39,630 nucleotides of DNA from Candidatus Saccharimonadales bacterium. GTDB taxonomy: Bacteria > Patescibacteriota > Saccharimonadia > Saccharimonadales > DATKHC01. The stretch covers positions 1-39,630 of the forward strand of contig JBBQBA010000004.1 of NCBI GenBank assembly GCA_038317055.1, written 5' to 3'. The notes under the pieces are model-generated. The model worked only from the letters and a program-made list of their open reading frames with translations, did no database searches and was not told the DNA's origin. Each line of letters begins with the position of its first letter. Positions within the stretch are counted from its first letter, which is position 1. A program made the position numbers and the translations under genes. Positions 20,164 to 39,096 of this stretch are shown here, in pieces.

Positions 20164-21204
20164 CTACGCTGCTGGAGCTGGTGGTACTGGAGGAGTTTGC
20201 CCGTCGGTTGGAGCTGGAGTTCCTTCTTTAGAGTCTTCAGCTGCTAGTAATTCTTGTAATCGTGAACCTTGATCTGCACTACCTGCGGAAGGTTCTACAA
20301 CTTTTGAACCGCCTACGAGTTGTGGGTCTGGACCAGCTGGTGCATCACTTGGTGTTACTGTAGCCGAAGGATCAGGTGTGGTTGATTGTACTGCTGGTTC
20401 CATTGCTGAAGTGTCGCCTAGTGCTGATGAATCGTCGGCTGTAGGCATTACTGGTGCATCTACTGCTGGTTGACTATCTGATAACGGGTTAGGATCTGAT
20501 GTTACTTGACCAGTTCCGCCATCACTAGAAGTATCTGGTGTTACCGGTGCTGATGTGTCAGCTGCTGGAGCTGGTGCATCACTTGGTGTTGGTTGGTTTG
20601 TTGATGTATCTTCGTTCATGTCTTTTGTCTCCTCATTAACTATTTTTTGTTGTTCTACTGATATTGGTTGTGATTGTTCATCCACTACTGATTGTGCTTG
20701 GGCGATGTCTGGTGTAGTACTTGCGGTCGCGTCTGTTGCAGGGGCTGCACTACTGGCATCTGCTGGTGCTACATTTGCTCCAAGATTTGCATTATTCATA
20801 TCAAGGTCCTTAGGAGCTTCCCCTGGTGTTTCTTCGTCCGAACCCAAAACTTCCTTAACGGTCTTAACAATGTCTTCTAGGGTAACTTGTGATTTTACTA
20901 GATATTTATTTGCACCTAGTTTTTCAGCTCGTGCCTTGTCTTCAGCTTGAGAAAGCGCTGACATTATAATAACTTTAGTGTATTTTGTAGCCGGTGTACT
21001 TCGGAGGATATCCAAAGTATCGAAACCACTTATTTTAGGCATCATTATGTCTAAAATAATTAAGTCAGGTTTTTCCTGACCTATAATTGCGAGTGCTTCT
21101 TCACCGTCCTTGGCTGTCACTGTTTCATAGCCTTCAGCCATCAGTCGAGCCTGGTAGATTTCTCGTAGGCTATTGTCGTCCTCGACCAGCATTATTTTTG
21201 CCAC
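20164..21204 (-). CDS. Response-regulator receiver with long acidic P/A/S/T disordered tail
   Basis: VEDD, LDIMMPKISG, K; no output domain; GTG start. Confidence 0.9.
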   Translation of the reverse strand: MAKIMLVEDDNSLREIYQARLMAEGYETVTAKDGEEALAIIGQEKPDLIILDIMMPKISGFDTLDILRSTPATKYTKVIIMSALSQAEDKARAEKLGANKYLVKSQVTLEDIVKTVKEVLGSDEETPGEAPKDLDMNNANLGANVAPADASSAAPATDATASTTPDIAQAQSVVDEQSQPISVEQQKIVNEETKDMNEDTSTNQPTPSDAPAPAADTSAPVTPDTSSDGGTGQVTSDPNPLSDSQPAVDAPVMPTADDSSALGDTSAMEPAVQSTTPDPSATVTPSDAPAGPDPQLVGGSKVVEPSAGSADQGSRLQELLAAEDSKEGTPAPTDGQTPPVPPAPAA

Positions 21205-21271: not shown

Positions 21272-22537
21272 TTACAAAGTTAGGTTAGAAGATGGCATAG
21301 CTACTGCATTTTGCATAGTTTCGGTGCGCTTTAATGCATCAGCTTGTTGAGTAGATAACCTCGGTAGATTTATCCTAAATGTACTTCCCTTACCTAGATC
21401 ACTCTCAACCCAAATTTGACCACCATATAATTCAACAATTTTTTTACATATAAATAGACCAAGTCCAGTTCCGCCTATCGTTCGTACTGACGAATTATCT
21501 ACTCTATAGAATTTTTGGAACAAATGCGGAACATCTTCTGCTGGAATTCCTGGCCCAGTGTCTTGAACTGAAATTTGAACGACAGTGTCATCACCGCCTG
21601 CACCAATTGTTATCTTGCCAGCTTCGGTATACTTAACGGCGTTATCAAAAATATTAGTTATAACCTCAGACATTCGATCAGGATCTACATGCACATAATA
21701 TAAGGGTGCAACTACTTTGCCTCCGTCACCATTAGCTTGGTTACCTCCACTCATAGAAACAAAATCTACAATCAAATGTTTTTTCTCAGCTGCTATCTGG
21801 AATGTTTCCGCAAGGTTTTGGATAAATTGCCCAACTTCGACAACTTGTGGTTTATTTACTAGTCTTCCATCTTCTGCCTTTGAACTAGTAAGTAGATCTT
21901 GAAAAAGTTTACCTAGCTGTCTGGTACTTTGATGAGCTTTTTCTAAGAAGTCCTTGGCCCGTGAGTCTATACTACTGACCTTATCGTTCATAGCCAGTGA
22001 TAAATAACCTTCAATAGCTGCAACTGGGGTGCGCATTTCATGACTGGCAGTACTAATAAAATCAGCTCGTTGTTTTTCAGCCGCTCGCTGAACACTAATG
22101 TCTCTAAGTACAGCAACTAATCCGACCGGGTTTTTATCTATAATTACGGGTGAGATAACAAGTGACACTATAATTTTTTTACCTTGATGGCCAGTTAGCA
22201 CCGCAGTTGATTCAACTTTCTTTTTTTCCTTAAGTACTACTGTAAAAGGATTAGTCTCAGGAGGAATTTCCTGTCCAGTTTCAGTTGTCAGTTTAATTAC
22301 TAGATTTATATCTACTCCGATTGCATCGGTACTTGCCCATTCACTCATAAATGAAGCGGCTGGATTAATAAGACTAATTTTACCGCTTGTATCTGTAACT
22401 ACTACTCCATCGGCAATAGATTCAATAAGCATCTCATTCTGTTTTTCAGTATTCTCAGGCATACCCTTAAGACTATTTAAACCGGTAGAAGGCGTTTTAT
22501 TTCGATGCCAAAAAGACAATTTTTGAATCAATTTCAT
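21272..22537 (-). CDS. PAS-domain sensor histidine kinase (no obvious TM helix)
   Basis: PAS (IADGV..LINPAA), H-box SHEMRTP, NAVKYT, DTGPGI, GGTGLGL. Confidence 0.95.
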   Translation of the reverse strand: MKLIQKLSFWHRNKTPSTGLNSLKGMPENTEKQNEMLIESIADGVVVTDTSGKISLINPAASFMSEWASTDAIGVDINLVIKLTTETGQEIPPETNPFTVVLKEKKKVESTAVLTGHQGKKIIVSLVISPVIIDKNPVGLVAVLRDISVQRAAEKQRADFISTASHEMRTPVAAIEGYLSLAMNDKVSSIDSRAKDFLEKAHQSTRQLGKLFQDLLTSSKAEDGRLVNKPQVVEVGQFIQNLAETFQIAAEKKHLIVDFVSMSGGNQANGDGGKVVAPLYYVHVDPDRMSEVITNIFDNAVKYTEAGKITIGAGGDDTVVQISVQDTGPGIPAEDVPHLFQKFYRVDNSSVRTIGGTGLGLFICKKIVELYGGQIWVESDLGKGSTFRINLPRLSTQQADALKRTETMQNAVAMPSSNLTL

Positions 22538-22646: not shown

Positions 22647-22721
22647 GGCCCCATCGTCTAACGGTTAGGACACCAGGTTCTCATCCTGGCAATAGGAGTT
22701 CGATTCTCCTTGGGGTCACCA
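22647..22721 (+). tRNA. tRNA-Glu (CTC)
   Basis: GGCCCCA/TGGGGTC acceptor stem, CCAGG-TTCTCAT-CCTGG, TTCGATT loop, encoded CCA. Confidence 0.97.
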
Positions 22722-22850
22722 AAAGTACTTTTAACTCTATTTTTTGACAGAGGATTATTTATACCAAATATTCCTAAGAAGATAGTAGTTACATTCGTAC
22801 CAGTTCTCTTAATTGCAAACTTTTAAAAATCATAATATGATTAAACCAAT

Positions 22851-23633
22851 ATGGGTGAGCAAGATAAAGAACTTCAACAAACCAATTCAGTACTAAAAGA
22901 AACTTCACAAACGCCTAATCAACAAGTATCAACTAACCAACTGCCAGATACAAGTCAATTCTCACAAGATGTACAGCGAGCTGTTAATCCCAGCTCAATA
23001 TATCCAACTCCCGCTGTTAATTACTTAAACTCGAATCAGATACCTATTCATCCAGATAATATCCAAAAACCAATCAAGAAGAGCTATAAAATTTTACTTA
23101 TTTCATTGATAATTGTAGCCCTATTATTTCTTGGTTTAATAGGTTCGTTGTACAAAATTAAAGGGCATTCAAACACTCACCAATTATCCAGTACTAATTC
23201 AGCTAGTAATTCGAATACTAACATCAGTCATAGTTTTGATATAGCAGGAGTTAATTTCAGTATAGATACACCTAAAACTTCTTCAGTTAAATCAAATAGT
23301 TCAGCCATAGCATTTAACGGCATAAATAACAATGGAGCAAAAATTGATATTGGGATAACTCAAGCAACCCCTACTTATACACTTAATATTACTTGTACCC
23401 CACAAGGAGTCCTTTATAATCTGGGAACAATTTCAATTCTAGGAAAACAAATTGTTGTTTGTTCAAACGGAAACAATGCCATTCCTGGTAATAACATAAT
23501 CCCATTTGATTATTCATACTTCACTATTAATGGAAAAGAGTTTAGATATGAAGGTTTGTCTGAAGATAATACTCAATCTGTCAATTTAAATGAATATAGC
23601 TCAATAGCCCAAACAATCAAAGTAAACAATTAG
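22851..23633 (+). CDS. Single-pass membrane protein: Q/N/P-rich N-terminus, S/N linker, Cys-pair ectodomain
   Basis: Composition and a TM segment ILLISLIIVALLFLGLIGSLY. Confidence 0.8.
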   Translation: MGEQDKELQQTNSVLKETSQTPNQQVSTNQLPDTSQFSQDVQRAVNPSSIYPTPAVNYLNSNQIPIHPDNIQKPIKKSYKILLISLIIVALLFLGLIGSLYKIKGHSNTHQLSSTNSASNSNTNISHSFDIAGVNFSIDTPKTSSVKSNSSAIAFNGINNNGAKIDIGITQATPTYTLNITCTPQGVLYNLGTISILGKQIVVCSNGNNAIPGNNIIPFDYSYFTINGKEFRYEGLSEDNTQSVNLNEYSSIAQTIKVNN

Positions 23634-23662
23634 CTATTATTTATAAGTAGTCCAAGCTTATA

Positions 23663-23717
23663 CCATCTAAGAATTTCACTACATACTTTCTTATTAACCG
23701 AATATCATAGGGTCATC
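23663..23717 (+). repeat. 55-bp direct repeat, copy 1, ending in tRNA-Glu-like 3' end
   Basis: CCATCTAAGAATTTCA..CTTATTAACCGAATATCATAGGGTCATC; 38/55 ungapped identity to copy 2 (hand count). Confidence 0.8.
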
Positions 23718-23769
23718 AATTTTCCTATGCACATATTAAGTAATACAGTTATGCTAAACTTTACTCAAG

Positions 23770-24612
23770 ATGGATAACCATAGTCAAAACCTTCTTCCAA
23801 GTAACCCAATAAACTCGCAGCTACAACAACCCCAGAATCAACCAGGTAATAATAATCAGGGCTCTATCTCAGTAGGGCAAGAACTGAGCTATGGACCTGA
23901 GGGCGACAAGTCGTATATTGTTACTTATTTATTCTCATATTTTCTGGGATTCCTAGGTATTGACCGCTTTTATAGAGGGTTAATAGGAACGGGTATTTTA
24001 AAGTTGATTACACTAGGTGGTCTTGGTATTTGGTCTTTCATAGACTGGTTACTTACAGGATTTGGAAAACCTAAGGACAAACGAGGCTTACTATTAAGCG
24101 GATTTTCAAAAAACAGGAAAACTATTCAGATAATAACAGTTGTCTTACTTGTACTTGGTTTATTTATTGTTCCGGCTGTAATATTGCTGATGACGTTTCT
24201 TGCTGTTCCATCACTGCAACAAAGTGCTAGAAATACTGCTCGTAAAACTGATATATATAACATCTCCTCAGCAATAAATACTTATGAATCTCACAATAAT
24301 TCTCAACCACCTCAGTCTGTAATCCAGGTCGGAAATCCAACAAGCTTCAAGTTATGTGGTATAGATTGTTCAAACGGAAGTGTTACTGTGTTGGTCACGA
24401 ACTACACTAGTTCTAATATATCGTTCCAGAATTTTTCTCCTAATTTGAGCGTATCAAGTGTTGATATGGTCTATATTGTTAATAACGCCACATGTAATAG
24501 TTCGAGAAGTGGTATAGGCATTGTAAGCGGTAGTGGAATATCATCATCTGCAATTTTATATGCCATTGAAGGTAGTGGAACATCTCTTAAACAGCAGTGC
24601 TTGGCGACTTAG
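23770..24612 (+). CDS. TM2-domain protein fused to a type IV pilin-like head
   Basis: KSYIVTYLFSYFLGFLGIDRFY.G..GTGILKLITLGGLGIW (TM2), then FLAVPSLQQSARNTARKTDI..AINTY..NN..PP and a C-terminal Cys. Confidence 0.8.
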   Translation: MDNHSQNLLPSNPINSQLQQPQNQPGNNNQGSISVGQELSYGPEGDKSYIVTYLFSYFLGFLGIDRFYRGLIGTGILKLITLGGLGIWSFIDWLLTGFGKPKDKRGLLLSGFSKNRKTIQIITVVLLVLGLFIVPAVILLMTFLAVPSLQQSARNTARKTDIYNISSAINTYESHNNSQPPQSVIQVGNPTSFKLCGIDCSNGSVTVLVTNYTSSNISFQNFSPNLSVSSVDMVYIVNNATCNSSRSGIGIVSGSGISSSAILYAIEGSGTSLKQQCLAT

Positions 24613-24657
24613 ATAAGTAATATAATTGACTACTCTGTAATTACTTAATCTTGCATT

Positions 24658-24712
24658 CCACCTAATAATTTCAGCTATGATAACCTTATAATCCGAATAG
24701 TATAGGGTCACC
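24658..24712 (+). repeat. 55-bp direct repeat, copy 2, ending GGGTCACC
   Basis: CCACCTAATAATTTCA..CTTATAATCCGAATAGTATAGGGTCACC. Confidence 0.8.
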
Positions 24713-24720
24713 TGTAATTA

Positions 24721-24999
24721 CAAAAAATAAGATTATATTATTTTTCATTTATGGTTAAATGTCAGGATCAAGCTGAGGTTGATGCAGTATGTGACAAATT
24801 TGTTGCTGATGGCGGAAAAGCTAATCAGTGCGGTTGGATAGACGATAAGTTTGGTGTTTATTGGCAGATTATACCTGTTCAACTTGGCCAGTTTATGTCT
24901 GATTCTGATTTAGAAAAATCTAGTAGAGTGACGCTAGCCATGCTCAAGATGAATAAAATAATAATCGCTGATCTAGAAAAAGCTCACTCTGGAATTTAA
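24721..24999 (+). pseudogene. Truncated VOC/PhnB-like (3-dmu-9_3-mt) gene, C-terminal half only
   Basis: SFMVKC.DQAEVD..QCGWIDDKFGVYWQIIP..AMLKMNKIIIADLE; N-terminal half absent. Confidence 0.75.
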
Positions 25000-25003
25000 C
25001 AAA

Positions 25004-26197
25004 TTAAGGCGTATAAACAAGTTGGCTATTAAGACCAACTGCTGTTAGCCATGTCTGACCAGCATTGAATTTTATAGCTGCACCAGTTGCATCAGTAAAT
25101 AAAACTTGCGAAGTTGGGTATGGTTTACTCCATGTACCTTGTATTACACCACCGTCTTGGAAAATGTATGCAGTACTGCTACCTATATCTGAGTATTGGG
25201 TATAATATGCTCCGCTCGCATCAAGCGCTCCGTTTGTCCAGGGCATAATCATGGCTACGACTACCTTAGGTTGTATTTGCTTACCAGTATTTGAATCAGT
25301 CATCGCTGCCCCACCCTCACTTCGATTATAAGCATTTGTAGTTGGATCGTAATCGTAGTGAACATTATAAGATGAGCTAGAAATATTCATATCGATTTTT
25401 GTCGCTGTTGGTTTAGCTAAAGGTTTATCGTCTTTGCGTGGAAAGCCTGTGAAAGTCGAGGTCGTAAAGCTTTTACTTTGTTCTAATGTACTTAATTCGC
25501 TCATAGATGTATATACGTTATGCGGAGCTACTCTAGTAGAAATTCTGTGGAAATAACTACCATAAGAAAATTCGTTTAAATCTCTAATACCTATCGTGCC
25601 TATTTTACTAAGTGCATCCGGACTACCACCAACATGAACGTAAGTAGCATTAAAACCTAGAGCCCAATCTATATAATATGGGCGAGCACTTCTAATTGGC
25701 CCAAGTGAAGTGGATTGATTTTCTTCAAATAAAGCTAAGAATCTAGTTATACCCGCTTCTGCAATTGCCTCAAACACAACACCAGCATCACTTAGCCCTG
25801 ATTGAGGTCTAGCATCTGGAGTATTTTCTATCATTACACCTGTTACTGGTAAGGCTTGTTCGGCTGCCGTAACTGGAAGTCCGGTTAACCGAGATAATAT
25901 CTTTGGAGGTGGAACAACAACTGCTCTATCCGGTTTAGGAACCGGAGGACTTTGAAGTTTTGTACTATGAGTAAATATAAGTACCAATAACACTACTCCA
26001 ACTATGGAAATACCGCTTTCAGCGCCTACAATCCATTTCTCTTTTTTGGTAAGAGGATGTTTGTTTTTGATCTTATGATGAAGCTTTTTTGGGTTGAATG
26101 TCGATTTAGGTGCATCAGTAATATTATCTTTACCATCTATCATGATGTGGAAATCGGGGTTTGGTGGTTGTTGTTTTCGTTTTAAATGGTTAAACAT
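25004..26197 (-). CDS. DUF3048 (YerB-like) membrane-anchored protein
   Basis: LTGLP, VMIEN.PDARPQSGL, EAGITRF, GPIRSARPY, APHNVY, GQTW. Confidence 0.9.
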   Translation of the reverse strand: MFNHLKRKQQPPNPDFHIMIDGKDNITDAPKSTFNPKKLHHKIKNKHPLTKKEKWIVGAESGISIVGVVLLVLIFTHSTKLQSPPVPKPDRAVVVPPPKILSRLTGLPVTAAEQALPVTGVMIENTPDARPQSGLSDAGVVFEAIAEAGITRFLALFEENQSTSLGPIRSARPYYIDWALGFNATYVHVGGSPDALSKIGTIGIRDLNEFSYGSYFHRISTRVAPHNVYTSMSELSTLEQSKSFTTSTFTGFPRKDDKPLAKPTATKIDMNISSSSYNVHYDYDPTTNAYNRSEGGAAMTDSNTGKQIQPKVVVAMIMPWTNGALDASGAYYTQYSDIGSSTAYIFQDGGVIQGTWSKPYPTSQVLFTDATGAAIKFNAGQTWLTAVGLNSQLVYTP

Positions 26198-31741: not shown

Positions 31742-33217
31742 ATGGATTTTTTAGACCCAAAAAAAAGACGATCATATAATATTAGACTATTCATAGGCTT
31801 TGTCCTTATTAGTATTGCTATTGTTCTGGCTACGACAATCTTAGCCCTAATAACAGCTGGTTATACAATTAATCGTAAAACCGGACAAGTTGTTCAAGAC
31901 AGTTTAGTATTTATTAATTCTCAGCCAGTTTCATCTTCGATATATATTAATGGAAAATTGTCGGGTACAACTAATGCAAGATTTGACTTGGGAGCTGGAA
32001 ATTACAGCGTGTCACTTAGTCAGTCAGGATATCATCAGTGGTCTAATAAAATAGCACTATATGGTGGTCAAGTTGAGCAATTAAACTATCCATTTCTATT
32101 TCCTACAAGCCCAACTAAGACAGCAACTTTAGCAGTTGCAAGTCAACCAGCGATTTCTTCAACTACTCCAGACAGACACTGGATGCTTGTCTCTATTCCT
32201 GGCCAAGTCGGTAGCTTCAATATTATAGATATAACTAACCCAAAGACACCAATAACATCAATAACTATTCCGACAAGCGTTCTGGCTAGTCCATCAGGAT
32301 CTAATACGCTGACTGCGATTGAATGGTCAACCGATAATCAGCACCTTCTCCTTAAGGATGATTACAGTGGTGGATCTCAATTTATAATGCTGGATAGAAC
32401 TAGCCCAACCGATAGTTTTAATATTAATAAAACTTTTTCCGGTGCTAGTTTCACTAACATTAAACTAGCTAATCAGTCATATAATAAGCTTTATCTATTC
32501 GACCAAGCTTCTGGATCAATATCTTTAGGTGATGTTGGCGCAAAAACTGTTACACCTGTAATTAGTAATGCAATTGCCTTCTGGCCATATGGAAGCAATC
32601 AGATTGTATACACCACACGGGATTCTAAATCTACAAATCTAGTTGATGCCAATCTATGGAACTCAAATGGTCACACCTATACATTACGTACACTTCCGGT
32701 TGGTACTTCCTATCAATTAAACATGGCTTCATTTAATGGAAAGCTATATGTCGTTGTAGGCAGTAGTACTTCAAAGTACGCCTATGTATATTTAAATCCC
32801 CAAGATGATTTTAGCGCCCACCCAGACAAACAACCCTTGCCATATACTTTGCTTGTTGTGACAGGTGCGCTTGAAAACGTAACTTTCTCAAATTCAGCTA
32901 GATTTATTTCCTTGCAAAGTGGTAGTCAATTTGCGATATATGATATTTTGTACGACACTCATTATCGATACGATACTCAACTTGCCTTCGCCCCAACTCA
33001 ACTTGCTACTTGGATGGATGGTAACCGATTAAATGCAGTAATTGATGGCAAATTAACAATTTGGGATTTTGACGGAACTAACATGATTCCATTTACGTTA
33101 GCTGAGCCAGCTTATTTGCCTGCTTACAATCAAAGCTATAATGCCGTATACACAATTAACCAAATAACTGGCCAATGGCAAATTACTAGAAATAGTTTGA
33201 TAGACGGAAAAAGTTAA
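31742..33217 (+). CDS. PEGA-domain membrane-anchored protein with probable beta-propeller
   Basis: TM helix, INSQP..IYING..G.YSV.L...GY..W; C-terminal WDFDGTN. Confidence 0.85.
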   Translation: MDFLDPKKRRSYNIRLFIGFVLISIAIVLATTILALITAGYTINRKTGQVVQDSLVFINSQPVSSSIYINGKLSGTTNARFDLGAGNYSVSLSQSGYHQWSNKIALYGGQVEQLNYPFLFPTSPTKTATLAVASQPAISSTTPDRHWMLVSIPGQVGSFNIIDITNPKTPITSITIPTSVLASPSGSNTLTAIEWSTDNQHLLLKDDYSGGSQFIMLDRTSPTDSFNINKTFSGASFTNIKLANQSYNKLYLFDQASGSISLGDVGAKTVTPVISNAIAFWPYGSNQIVYTTRDSKSTNLVDANLWNSNGHTYTLRTLPVGTSYQLNMASFNGKLYVVVGSSTSKYAYVYLNPQDDFSAHPDKQPLPYTLLVVTGALENVTFSNSARFISLQSGSQFAIYDILYDTHYRYDTQLAFAPTQLATWMDGNRLNAVIDGKLTIWDFDGTNMIPFTLAEPAYLPAYNQSYNAVYTINQITGQWQITRNSLIDGKS

Positions 33218-33247
33218 CCATTAAATAAACCTCAAGTATTTTTACAA

Positions 33248-34525
33248 CTAGAGCCAACTAGTTAATCTACTCCAAAGCGACTGAGAGTTGCTTGGTAGAA
33301 CTGAGGGCTTTGAAGCAGTGTCTTGGCTAGGTCCAGCAGTATTTGATGCCACATTAGGGCTTATTTGATCGCCAACTACATACAATCGATTAATACTGGT
33401 TCCTGGTGGATCACATGTAATTAGGGTGAACGTCGCAGTGTGACCGGGAACATTATTTAAAATACCCACATCATTTGGTGGAACAATATCTTTCTTGAAT
33501 ATCTGATAAACATAGGCATTGCCATTGTAATCTAGCGTAAAAGTATCACCAACTTGTAGATCATGAAGTAATACAAACGCAAACTTATATTTCCCTGGAT
33601 TAAGAATATTATTACTGGAGTGACCGAAAATAGCACCATTTCCATTTTGACCCGGATAGGCTGTAGTTGGATAGTGCACTACACCGTCTTGTAAATTATT
33701 TTCTATTAGATTCTCATCAATTGTCGGCACTGAATATATTACTGGTATCTCAACATTTATCTTTGGAATTATAACCTGTGGATTAGGTCCAACCTGGCCA
33801 CTGCTAGGATCAATTATTGATGCTTGAGCGCTTACGTTTTGGCTGGGTGTAATAAAAGGAGCGATGAATCTTTCATTGAAGAAGCTAAACAAAAATATAA
33901 TTATGAATACTCCACCGACTCCTAATCCGAAAAGTAATGAGTGAAATCTTTGATACCATGCGTTGGAGTTTCGACTTTGTACATGGCTAAGTAGATCCTG
34001 CTTTACCTCCGCAGCCGTTTTTTTTTCAGTCATAGCTGAAGCTGCACGATTTATAGGCGGTTTCGGAACTTTAGGTTTAGGGCCTGGTTTTTGTCGAGTC
34101 TTTTTTTCTGGTTCGTCATGCTCTGGTGGTGCTATATAAGTTGTATGTGCAGTACTGGTTGGTTTAGTATTTTGTTTATTAGCTGCGTAAAATTCTTCCC
34201 AGACTTGGTTTTTCTCAACATTATTTAGTGACATATAATACTCATGCCAAGATGTTTGAACTTCAACTGCACTTTTACCTGATGCCTGAAGTTCTAAAAT
34301 ATATTTTTGATGTTTTGAGTGTCTGTGGTGATCGGTTTTAATCTCTTCAATTTCTTCGCTAGCTGTTGGTTCTTCACCATAAATATTTTTTAGTTTTTGC
34401 CTGATTACGTCTGCAGCAAGATTTAGATCTTCGCTCTTTGCTTGATCGTCGTTGCCCTTATTATTTTTAGGCACTGGCATTTTTGGAATGCCGTCATTAT
34501 TCGAATTATGTTTATCGTCGTCCAT
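33248..34525 (-). CDS. Sortase with long N-terminal cytoplasmic region
   Basis: IIPKINVE.P, GVVHYP.TA.PG, catalytic H (GHSS), TLITC, R. Confidence 0.92.
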   Translation of the reverse strand: MDDDKHNSNNDGIPKMPVPKNNKGNDDQAKSEDLNLAADVIRQKLKNIYGEEPTASEEIEEIKTDHHRHSKHQKYILELQASGKSAVEVQTSWHEYYMSLNNVEKNQVWEEFYAANKQNTKPTSTAHTTYIAPPEHDEPEKKTRQKPGPKPKVPKPPINRAASAMTEKKTAAEVKQDLLSHVQSRNSNAWYQRFHSLLFGLGVGGVFIIIFLFSFFNERFIAPFITPSQNVSAQASIIDPSSGQVGPNPQVIIPKINVEIPVIYSVPTIDENLIENNLQDGVVHYPTTAYPGQNGNGAIFGHSSNNILNPGKYKFAFVLLHDLQVGDTFTLDYNGNAYVYQIFKKDIVPPNDVGILNNVPGHTATFTLITCDPPGTSINRLYVVGDQISPNVASNTAGPSQDTASKPSVLPSNSQSLWSRLTSWL

Positions 34526-34611: not shown

Positions 34612-34698
34612 GCCGCGGTGGCGGAATTGGTAGACGCGCGGGACTCAAAATCCCGTAAGGGCAACCTTGTGAGAGTTCAATTCTCTCCCGCGGCACCA
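34612..34698 (+). tRNA. tRNA-Leu (CAA)
   Basis: GCCGCGG/CCGCGGC acceptor stem, CGGGA-CTCAAAA-TCCCG, long variable arm, CCA. Confidence 0.97.
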
Positions 34699-36645: not shown

Positions 36646-36735
36646 TGGCGGAAAGGGCGGGATTCGAACCCGCGATACGGTTTCCCGTATACACGCTTTC
36701 CAAGCGTGCTCCTTAAACCACTCGGACACCCTTCC
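36646..36735 (-). tRNA. tRNA-Ser (GGA)
   Basis: GGAAGGG/CCTTTCC acceptor stem, CACGC-TTGGAAA-GCGTG, long variable arm, GCCA end. Confidence 0.97.
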
Positions 36736-39021: not shown

Positions 39022-39096
39022 TCCGGAGTAGCTCAATGGTGGAGCAAGAAGCTGTTAACTTCGAGGTTGCCGGTTCGAGTCCGGCCTCCGGAGCCA
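39022..39096 (+). tRNA. tRNA-Asn (GTT)
   Basis: TCCGGAG/CTCCGGA acceptor stem, GAAG-CTGTTAA-CTTC, GCCGG-TTCGAGT-CCGGC, GCCA end. Confidence 0.93.

Follow-up and report, generated by a model that had tools for sequence, protein, structure and literature searches.

The staphylococcal cassette chromosome (SCC) elements of staphylococci, including SCCmec, are inserted by the CcrAB large serine recombinases at the 3' end of rlmH in such a way that the target stays intact, and islands directed to tRNA genes accrete in tandem by means of tyrosine integrases, usually with duplication of at least 15 nt of the tRNA, and comprise recombinase-less elements that can be mobilised in cis. Integrons are characterised by the integrase IntI, the attI site, attC cassettes and the Pc promoter, some mycobacteriophages have integration-dependent immunity in which a tyrosine integrase acts on an attP located inside the repressor gene, and the PLE islands of Vibrio cholerae have a target that lies in superintegron repeats. 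The large serine recombinase of PLE is named Int in the abstract of PMC6002521. In the current work, a 39.6-kb contig of a Candidatus Saccharimonadales bacterium (JBBQBA010000004.1, analysed over its whole length and referred to below as the window) was investigated for a series of single genes that follows a tRNA-Glu(CTC) gene, each being closed by a copy of a repeat of approximately 60 nt, here named R; the genome amounts to 946 kb in 4 contigs and is 99.9% complete. The two copies of the repeat, R1 and R2, are probably scars left when mobile elements of the large serine recombinase (LSR) type integrated, on two or more separate occasions, into the 3' end of this tRNA gene.

The nearest analogue of such a locus would be the SCC/SCCmec composite island and, with respect to the target, the tandem accretion of tRNA-targeted islands. 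In common with SCC/SCCmec are a serine recombinase, a housekeeping gene targeted at its 3' end, tandem units that are each delimited by a short repeat containing the target end, and some units without a recombinase; the differences are that the target is a tRNA gene and not rlmH, that one LSR stands in place of the CcrA/CcrB pair, that the host is an ultrasmall member of the candidate phyla radiation, and that the frame of the recombinase appears to span the attachment site, by which its C-terminal tail would be swapped on integration. The likeness to tRNA-targeted islands consists of the targeted tRNA 3' end, the regenerated tRNA, the scars stacked downstream and the decayed units that keep their attachment sites and few genes, whereas here only 8-9 nt are shared, no integrase gene lies beside the tRNA in the window, and the gene at the junction in relatives encodes an LSR. 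PLE are likewise small islands driven by a serine recombinase at a repeated or conserved chromosomal site, but differ in target, host and element biology, and to our knowledge scar arrays at a tRNA have not been described for them. As in the mycobacteriophages, the attachment site is placed within a coding frame and integration would change the C-terminus of a protein; this frame is here the recombinase's own and not that of a repressor, and a regulatory role would be hypothetical. Integrons resemble the R arrays only in outward form, namely in their same-orientation arrays of short, mostly one- or two-gene units, a conserved site of ~60 nt and frequent toxin-antitoxin units, some of them reversed. 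An integron-like or tyrosine-integrase mechanism, as put forward in a first-pass annotation made from the sequence of the window alone, is not upheld, since there is no intI, R does not form an attC-like hairpin, is protein-coding on its other strand and stands in frame with LSR 3' ends, and the anchor is a tRNA and not an attI site with Pc.

The tRNA-Glu(CTC) gene, the putative integration target (22647-22721, + strand; ARAGORN and Rfam tRNA), ends in GGGGTCACCA, and core comparison indicated that its last 9 nt, GGGTCACCA (22713-22721), are common to the core of the R family, the shared core block being defined as 9-10 nt, GGGTCACCA(W). R1 (23658-23718, + strand) is a degraded copy, composed of a presumed distal attachment-site arm and the core TAGGGTCATCA, and R2 (24653-24712, + strand) is better kept, with a core, TAGGGTCACC, that is followed by TG rather than A(A/T); each was identified by hidden Markov model (HMM) and by its match to the other. 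A recount confirmed the tRNA-Glu end, the repeat coordinates of the first-pass annotation (23663-23717 and 24658-24712), their ungapped identity of 38/55 with 23/28 in the 3' block, and the GGGTCAYC ends at 22720, 23717 and 24712, i.e. spacings of 997 and 995 nt. When each copy was slid without gaps over both strands of all 4 contigs, the best non-self match was in either case the other copy (38/55), the next best in the genome being 32/55, and for the 28-nt 3' block the 23/28 between the copies compares with 20/28 for the next best; the match between R1 and R2 is far beyond chance. An HMM constructed from 34 copies of other genomes, and none of the window, retrieved R2 at E 4.2e-11 and R1 at E 1.9e-6, the next match in the genome having an E value of 2.5, and a third copy was found in the 946-kb genome neither with this HMM nor with a profile made from R1 and R2. 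The genome contains GGGTCAYC at 27 sites, among them the tRNA end and both repeat ends. As for the tRNA 3' end that the repeat was said to recreate, the identity is limited to 8-9 nt (GGGTCAYC, with or without a following A), and no tRNA word of at least 10 nt recurs downstream of tRNA-Glu in the window. A likeness of R to the T arm of the tRNA was considered and rejected, the similarity being within chance and the tRNA end not being among the top ungapped matches of the 28-nt 3' block.

The distribution of R was assessed by pattern scans at two levels of stringency. Among 401 genomes of the same order, a 23-position pattern from the 3' block, with up to 3 mismatches allowed, matched 9 sites in 5 genomes (none with a reversed-pattern control), and in the flanks of these matches the whole ~60 nt proved to be conserved. 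A strict pattern applied to one genome per species (185,579 species) returned 28 stretches, 20 of which are titled Saccharibacteria or Saccharimonadales, 5 'bacterium' only and 3 as other phyla (two Dormiibacterota and one Verrucomicrobiia), and from which 55 distinct R copies were collected by profile search. The repeat is thus a family present in many metagenome-assembled genomes, which removes one of the objections that the first-pass annotation had anticipated, i.e. that it might not be found elsewhere. Arrays of 2-5 copies, all but one copy being in the same orientation, are present in 12 of the 28 stretches; in 13 the first R is preceded by a tRNA-Glu gene upstream that shares its orientation (5 CTC and 8 TTC, at a distance of 0.7-2 kb), and among the tRNA genes within the 8 kb of each of the 28 stretches no other tRNA type was found there. 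R1 and R2 of the window are likewise situated downstream of tRNA-Glu in the same orientation, and two of the arrays (L061, identical to L045, and L067) share the regulator-kinase-tRNA-Glu(CTC) context of the window. The proposed stacking of site-specific insertions at a tRNA is therefore borne out by same-orientation R arrays downstream of tRNA-Glu in many Saccharibacteria, but the regular spacing of ~1 kb is not a rule, as the spacing in other arrays varies from 145 to 3581 nt, with units of 0.6-1.6 kb in several of them. The cargo of units in relatives, which may lie in either orientation, comprises toxin-antitoxin genes of the Phd/ParE and PIN types, pilin-like genes and various enzymes. 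Two contigs (G212:C14 and C15; loci L036, L040, L045 and L046) end within 150-450 nt of an R copy, and R therefore probably breaks short-read assemblies.

The locus itself is not invariant. Eleven other relatives keep the regulator-kinase-tRNA-Glu(CTC) context, the histidine-kinase orthologue adjoining tRNA-Glu(CTC) in 11 of 11 fetched loci, while the content downstream differs between genomes, and the distance from tRNA-Glu(CTC) to the DUF3048 gene ranges from 0.66 to 12.7 kb in the 9 relatives with both genes on the stretch. The site is thus a variable hotspot in relatives, and since no R was found in the 11 syntenic tRNA-Glu(CTC) loci, R units are to be regarded as one of several things landing there; R was likewise not found near full-length PhnB-like genes. 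The only tRNA-Glu locus visible in a genome of the same genus (G001, 50% complete) is that of tRNA-Glu(TTC), which is without R. The second tRNA-Glu (TTC) of the window's own genome (G000:C1:184032-184106, L024) is 99% identical to the CTC gene of the window and has no R beside it. In L020 (G027:C7, oriented) an exact 18-nt copy of the tRNA-Glu(CTC) 3' end was observed 139 nt downstream of the tRNA (2389-2463 and 2602-2619), and in L023 (G036) an 11-nt copy at a distance of ~145 nt downstream; both represent scars of another kind in the same hotspot.

On its reverse strand, nearly every R copy contains an open frame of 24-40 codons, often starting with ATG or TTG, which reads (M/L)VTLDHSVYK.IANEIIRWN..L followed by ~10 variable residues. 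In 40 good copies this frame holds 3 stop codons, as compared with 111 and 112 in the other reverse frames and 52-70 in the forward frames, and the Arg codon before Trp may be AGA, AGG, CGT, CGC or CGG, never being replaced by a Ser codon. Together, stop-codon counts and Arg codon usage argue for selection acting on an R-encoded protein, for which no Pfam or PDB relative was found. The motif CCGAAT, previously taken to be T-loop-like, is not tRNA-derived and on the other strand falls within the stretch coding for residues 5-8 (HSVY) of this conserved frame, and the dyad symmetry reported for R2 is not conserved in the family and folds no better than shuffles. A structured RNA, terminator or riboswitch was rejected, given that only the tRNA was matched in Rfam, in which R has no family, and that no fold signal was obtained when either strand of R1, R2 and a consensus-like copy was folded as DNA (z -1.79 to -0.18), RNA folds being likewise no better than shuffles. 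In the window, R1 has the core TCATCA, and its frame is interrupted at codon 4 by a stop. That of R2 (24556-24711, - strand; VTLYYSDYKVIIAEIIRWN...), recognised from the ORF list, frame comparison and the frame statistics of the family, is open for 51 codons without a preceding ATG or TTG, and may represent a relic of a recombinase C-terminal tail.

The connection of this frame with an LSR emerged from relatives, in which LSR genes of 511-578 aa are found directly after tRNA-Glu on the opposite strand. The LSR extends over the tRNA in the six cases read (G017, G027, G026, G228, G004, which is of the window's family, and G009, at the syntenic kinase-tRNA-Glu(CTC) site), with an overlap of 41 nt in the four that were measured (G017, G027, G026 and G228). 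The overlapping tail reads (M/L/V)V(T/I)PRGIEPLLPG in the frame xTG GTG ACC, which is exactly that of the R peptide, beginning (M/L)-V-T. Judged by coordinates, a PF07508 match lies 0.7-0.8 kb from tRNA-Glu on the opposite strand in 12 of 40 relatives, LSRs being present in 31 of the 40. At locus L063, ..TIKKDPPKSDESLL stands in phase before the R frame, which reads ..KKDPPKSDESLL and then VTLRRSVYK.. in one frame, an end of the same kind as the LSR ends ..NKKDPSNDESLV before VTP.. (..KKDPSNDESLV and then VTP..). A search with words of the R peptide retrieved P0012 (127 aa), which ends ..NLSYSEMVTLDHSVYKVIISEIIRWNELL.. and gave 293 matches in a full HMMER search; its first 95 residues match the C-terminal ~90 residues of five proteins of 550-589 aa, four of which contain Resolvase and Recombinase domains and one Recombinase only. 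In this protein and in P0020, P0068, P0123, P0040 and P0019, the C-terminal region of an LSR is joined in frame to an R tail; P0019 (263 aa) has a weak zinc-ribbon match (E 0.0018, below Pfam's cut-off), followed by what looks like a coiled-coil stretch. A tRNA-Glu-antisense tail ends at least 9 of 150 listed matches of P0012, and many others end in the antisense of other tRNAs. Considering these in-frame fusions and the shared frame, R is therefore best understood as the coding continuation of the LSR gene over the crossover region when the element ends are joined.

In the wider family to which the LSR C-terminal region belongs (P0013-P0162), many tails look like the antisense of other tRNA genes (..GFEPP.., ..GLEPRT.., ..NRTPIARMKTWCPNR) and other members have longer non-tRNA tails with the pattern ..WN...L....LGF.Y..G, and the tail swap may thus be general for this clade. 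P0013 (591 aa) combines TrwB/AAA_10-like matches, in the absence of a Resolvase domain, with an LSR C-terminal region and a tRNA-Glu-antisense tail, and may be a deletion fusion in a decaying element.

An element bounded by tRNA-Glu with an LSR on one side and by R on the other was observed in G228:C21. Here, tRNA-Glu(CTC) (31945-32019) is followed by an LSR gene (31979-33526; Resolvase 4e-30, Recombinase, zinc ribbon), a 296-aa tyrosine recombinase (PF00589, 6.8e-22), cargo, and PIN-type and Phd/ParE pairs, up to the best-scoring R of all at about 41322-41383 in the orientation of the tRNA, which gives an element of ~9.4 kb; two weaker R copies lie beyond it. This layout is the one that would be expected for one recent insertion ahead of older scars. 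In the same contig (about 31900-46500; L078, L043) the R array is followed by a regulator-kinase-RluB-like block that is inverted with respect to tRNA-Glu, unlike all other loci seen, and the innermost R is cut short, which together suggest an inversion between core sites. LSR elements at tRNA-Glu were further observed to share a conserved gene pair consisting of a protein of ~210-330 aa without Pfam family and a tyrosine recombinase of ~300 aa (L075 7075-8633, L076 2622-4180, L077 1838-3357, L079 2458-4328 and L043 1959-3853).

The opposite, left ends of the units were recognised by comparing the sequences that follow the core. A conserved motif of ~35 nt, the class-1 left end, stands directly after the core GGGTCACCA(A/T) at 11 aligned R copies (a weak twelfth having been set aside) and also abuts 3 tRNA-Glu ends, beside different cargo, and a second motif, the class-2 left end, follows other R cores; in other genomes both motifs directly follow tRNA-Glu 3' ends. 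Moreover, a homologous toxin-antitoxin unit begins right after CACC in two loci, adjoining the tRNA in L067 and a degenerate R core in L051. Left ends shared between R cores and tRNA-Glu ends are as stacked insertions at one core predict. In the window, the junction after R1 is weakly like a class-2 left end (E 0.0011).

These observations can be accommodated in the following model. An intact element would carry its LSR gene at the tRNA-proximal end on the opposite strand, with a frame spanning the crossover region (GGGTCACCA). In the integrated state this frame would end inside the tRNA with the tail ..VTPRGIEPLLPG, and in the excised or tandem state it would continue into the other attachment-site arm, i.e. 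R, with the tail VTLDHSVYK.IANEIIRWN. After integration R would mark the end of the element that is remote from the tRNA, older elements would be displaced downstream together with their R whenever a further insertion took place at the tRNA, and the older units would then lose the recombinase and most cargo, such decay being the presumed origin of the ~1-kb units. What would be left in the window is cargo gene 1 with R1, cargo gene 2 with R2, and a truncated PhnB-like gene, so that the locus is read as the relic of at least two, perhaps three, insertions. The array looks like a now inert relic, because there is no LSR in the genome, the frame of R1 is broken and the core of R2 is mutated. Indeed, the near-complete genome of the window has no Resolvase or Recombinase domain, a six-frame hmmsearch found no remnant of an LSR C-terminal region in it (best E 2), and the 13 open codons after the tRNA-Glu of the window are not significant as an LSR remnant. 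Intact elements of relatives carry the LSR gene themselves, abutting tRNA-Glu.

Several findings weigh against this model. A full-length LSR with an R tail was not seen, the longest being the 263-aa partial protein, the 9 close LSR homologues of the G017 protein all end in the tRNA-antisense tail and none in R, and no R was found within the fetched stretches of the LSR elements of G017, G027, G026 and G004. The class-1 motif, the commonest left-end motif after R, contains an in-frame stop and no LSR-like coding, by which many units may never have carried an LSR, and it is undetectable in the window and elsewhere in the genome. A hybrid attL site is not normally a target for serine integrases, and repeated insertion at the same tRNA would need a putative tolerance for the right half-site, which is plausible because that half lies outside the tRNA and differs between hosts. 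Recombination was not observed, as no joints were present in the contigs of run X1, which is probably that of the source sample and the only one to contain the locus; positions 22961-25300 are covered by one contig free of differences, and a gap in the cover of this run at 22805-22905 proves nothing. In addition, intact tRNA-Glu elements also carry a tyrosine recombinase of ~300 aa (G017, G026, G027 and G228), which could be the integrase instead.

This last reading, in which the integrase is a tyrosine recombinase, either that of the intact elements or a host Xer-like enzyme, and R arrays are classical tRNA-island scars with the LSR having another role, agrees with the PF00589 genes just mentioned, with the Xer-like recombinase kept by the genome and with the short identical core at the extreme 3' end of the tRNA, such cores being compatible with tyrosine integrases. 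Yet it is the LSR, and not the tyrosine recombinase, that abuts and overlaps the tRNA in all six cases read, the tyrosine recombinase lying 1-5 kb from the junction; the LSR frame continues into R with conservation at the amino-acid level, and tails antisense to a tRNA are common in the wider family of LSR C-terminal regions, which makes this explanation distinctly unlikely. For the window, the first-pass annotation correctly stated that no integrase is encoded: no recombinase was found there, and in the whole genome there is no Resolvase match and a single PF00589 match, on contig C1. The latter resembles the single copy of nearly all relatives. A less unlikely, though still improbable, explanation is that the units (left-end motif, gene and R) are recombinase-less cassettes which are captured and moved in trans by a recombinase from elsewhere or from an incoming element, tRNA-Glu serving as an integron-like platform with a serine recombinase in the place of IntI. 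Such an arrangement would account for a class-1 motif without LSR coding that recurs beside different cargo at R cores and tRNA-Glu ends, for the toxin-antitoxin unit placed exactly after CACC in both L067 and L051, for the short units of several arrays, and for the commonness of LSRs in the order, but neither a circular cassette nor an empty site was seen among the contigs of run X1, and the decayed LSR 3' ends fused to R imply that some units are remnants of larger elements. For the window in particular, the genome without an LSR, the broken R1 frame, the altered R2 core and the missing class-1 motif all speak against it. As class 1 is without LSR coding, some units may nevertheless be recombinase-less and moved in trans, and the cassette idea stays alive for the family.

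That R might have nothing to do with recombination, being either a regulatory site or an independent small gene that has a promoter of its own and about 30 codons, was considered in view of the open frames of 24-40 codons that often start with ATG or TTG and of a TATAAT-like box about 30 nt upstream on that strand in class-1 junctions; it is made very improbable by the in-frame fusions with LSR C-terminal regions, the strict association with tRNA-Glu, and the lack of a Pfam or PDB relative, of a fold signal and of an Rfam family. An old tandem duplication of ~1 kb, comprising a gene and its downstream region with subsequent divergence of the coding parts, would explain the near-equal spacings of 997 and 995 nt and the common layout of the two proteins, in which a low-complexity N-terminus is combined with a hydrophobic stretch and a C-terminal part that contains Cys. 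This possibility is already contradicted and almost certainly wrong, since the R family is found in many genomes beside unrelated genes, other arrays do not keep this spacing, and the two cargo proteins are dissimilar in BLASTP (best E 0.91), as the first-pass annotation had asserted, so that they do not align as paralogues; the weak DNA repeats inside the cargo genes stand at inconsistent offsets, 1024 and 907.

Insertion by LSR-type elements, followed by decay, remains the preferred reading. As a possible yet doubtful extension, tRNA-Glu in Saccharibacteria may constitute a gene-capture platform based on a serine recombinase, in which the tail swap signals the free or integrated state and units without an LSR are moved in trans, the window being a dead example. 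Integration would then exchange the conserved R tail of ~20-50 residues for a 13-residue tRNA-antisense tail, which could set the direction of the reaction, and an attachment site lying across the frame suggests how a serine integrase could, in a simple manner, sense whether it is integrated. The tRNA-Glu target of a Saccharibacteria LSR clade, a recombinase frame extending over the attachment site, and the R scars that result from it appear to be new, and the locus is considered a decayed representative of a mobile-element accretion site whose general kind is known but of which this variant had not been described. A description of R arrays was not found in the literature searched, which did not extend to subscription journals and supplementary files, and the accessible parts of PMC12642639, PMC12455944 and bioRxiv 10.1101/2025.01.22.634366 contain nothing relevant to them. 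The proposed mechanism explains a recurrent hypervariable spot by tRNA-Glu in very small Saccharibacteria genomes, at which pilin-like and toxin-antitoxin genes accumulate. It also provides a candidate phylum-native triplet of recombinase, attP (R-core-left end) and attB (tRNA-Glu 3' end) which, if working, would be a tool for site-specific integration in organisms that are genetically hard to manipulate.

With regard to the genes between and around the repeats, cargo gene 1 (22851-23633, + strand; 260 aa, from the ORF) is an orphan with a low-complexity N-terminus, one hydrophobic stretch (residues 74-105 by hydropathy) and 2 Cys; it has no Pfam family, and its only match among 5.8 billion proteins searched was itself. 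Cargo gene 2 (23770-24612, + strand; 280 aa) encodes a TM2 domain (46-93; PF05154 at 3.9e-16), a hydrophobic stretch (115-151) and a C-terminal part that is pilin-like and contains 4 Cys, its residues 115-266 resembling two pilin-like proteins of the same genome (tblastn E 1.5e-5 and 1.6e-4), in which our own reading of the sequences points to the usual N-terminal pilin motif. A TM2 domain fused to a pilin-like part that is devoid of the N-terminal pilin cleavage motif of its two paralogues is an unusual architecture. No homologue of either cargo gene was found in the other fetched arrays. The surface-protein nature noted for the cargo is matched in the window by the hydrophobic stretch in each protein and the TM2 and pilin-like features of cargo 2, but the cargo is not specifically of this type, toxin-antitoxin pairs being common in relatives.

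The gene following R2 (24742-24999, + strand) is 5'-truncated, as noted before, and covers only positions 73-116 of 116 of the PhnB-like family PF06983. It ends 4 nt from the stop of the DUF3048 gene (25004-26197, - strand; Pfam), the conserved right flank of the hotspot, and the distal border of the array has therefore been eroded. Full-length PhnB-like relatives sit elsewhere in their genomes and the fragment is not syntenic with them; an older insertion has probably left it as a remnant. On its left, the hotspot has as conserved flank a PAS/HisKA/HATPase histidine kinase (21272-22537, - strand; Pfam), to the left of which lies a response regulator (20164-21204, - strand). The window contains three more tRNA genes, Leu-CAA (34612-34698), Ser-GGA (36646-36735) and Asn-GTT (39022-39096).

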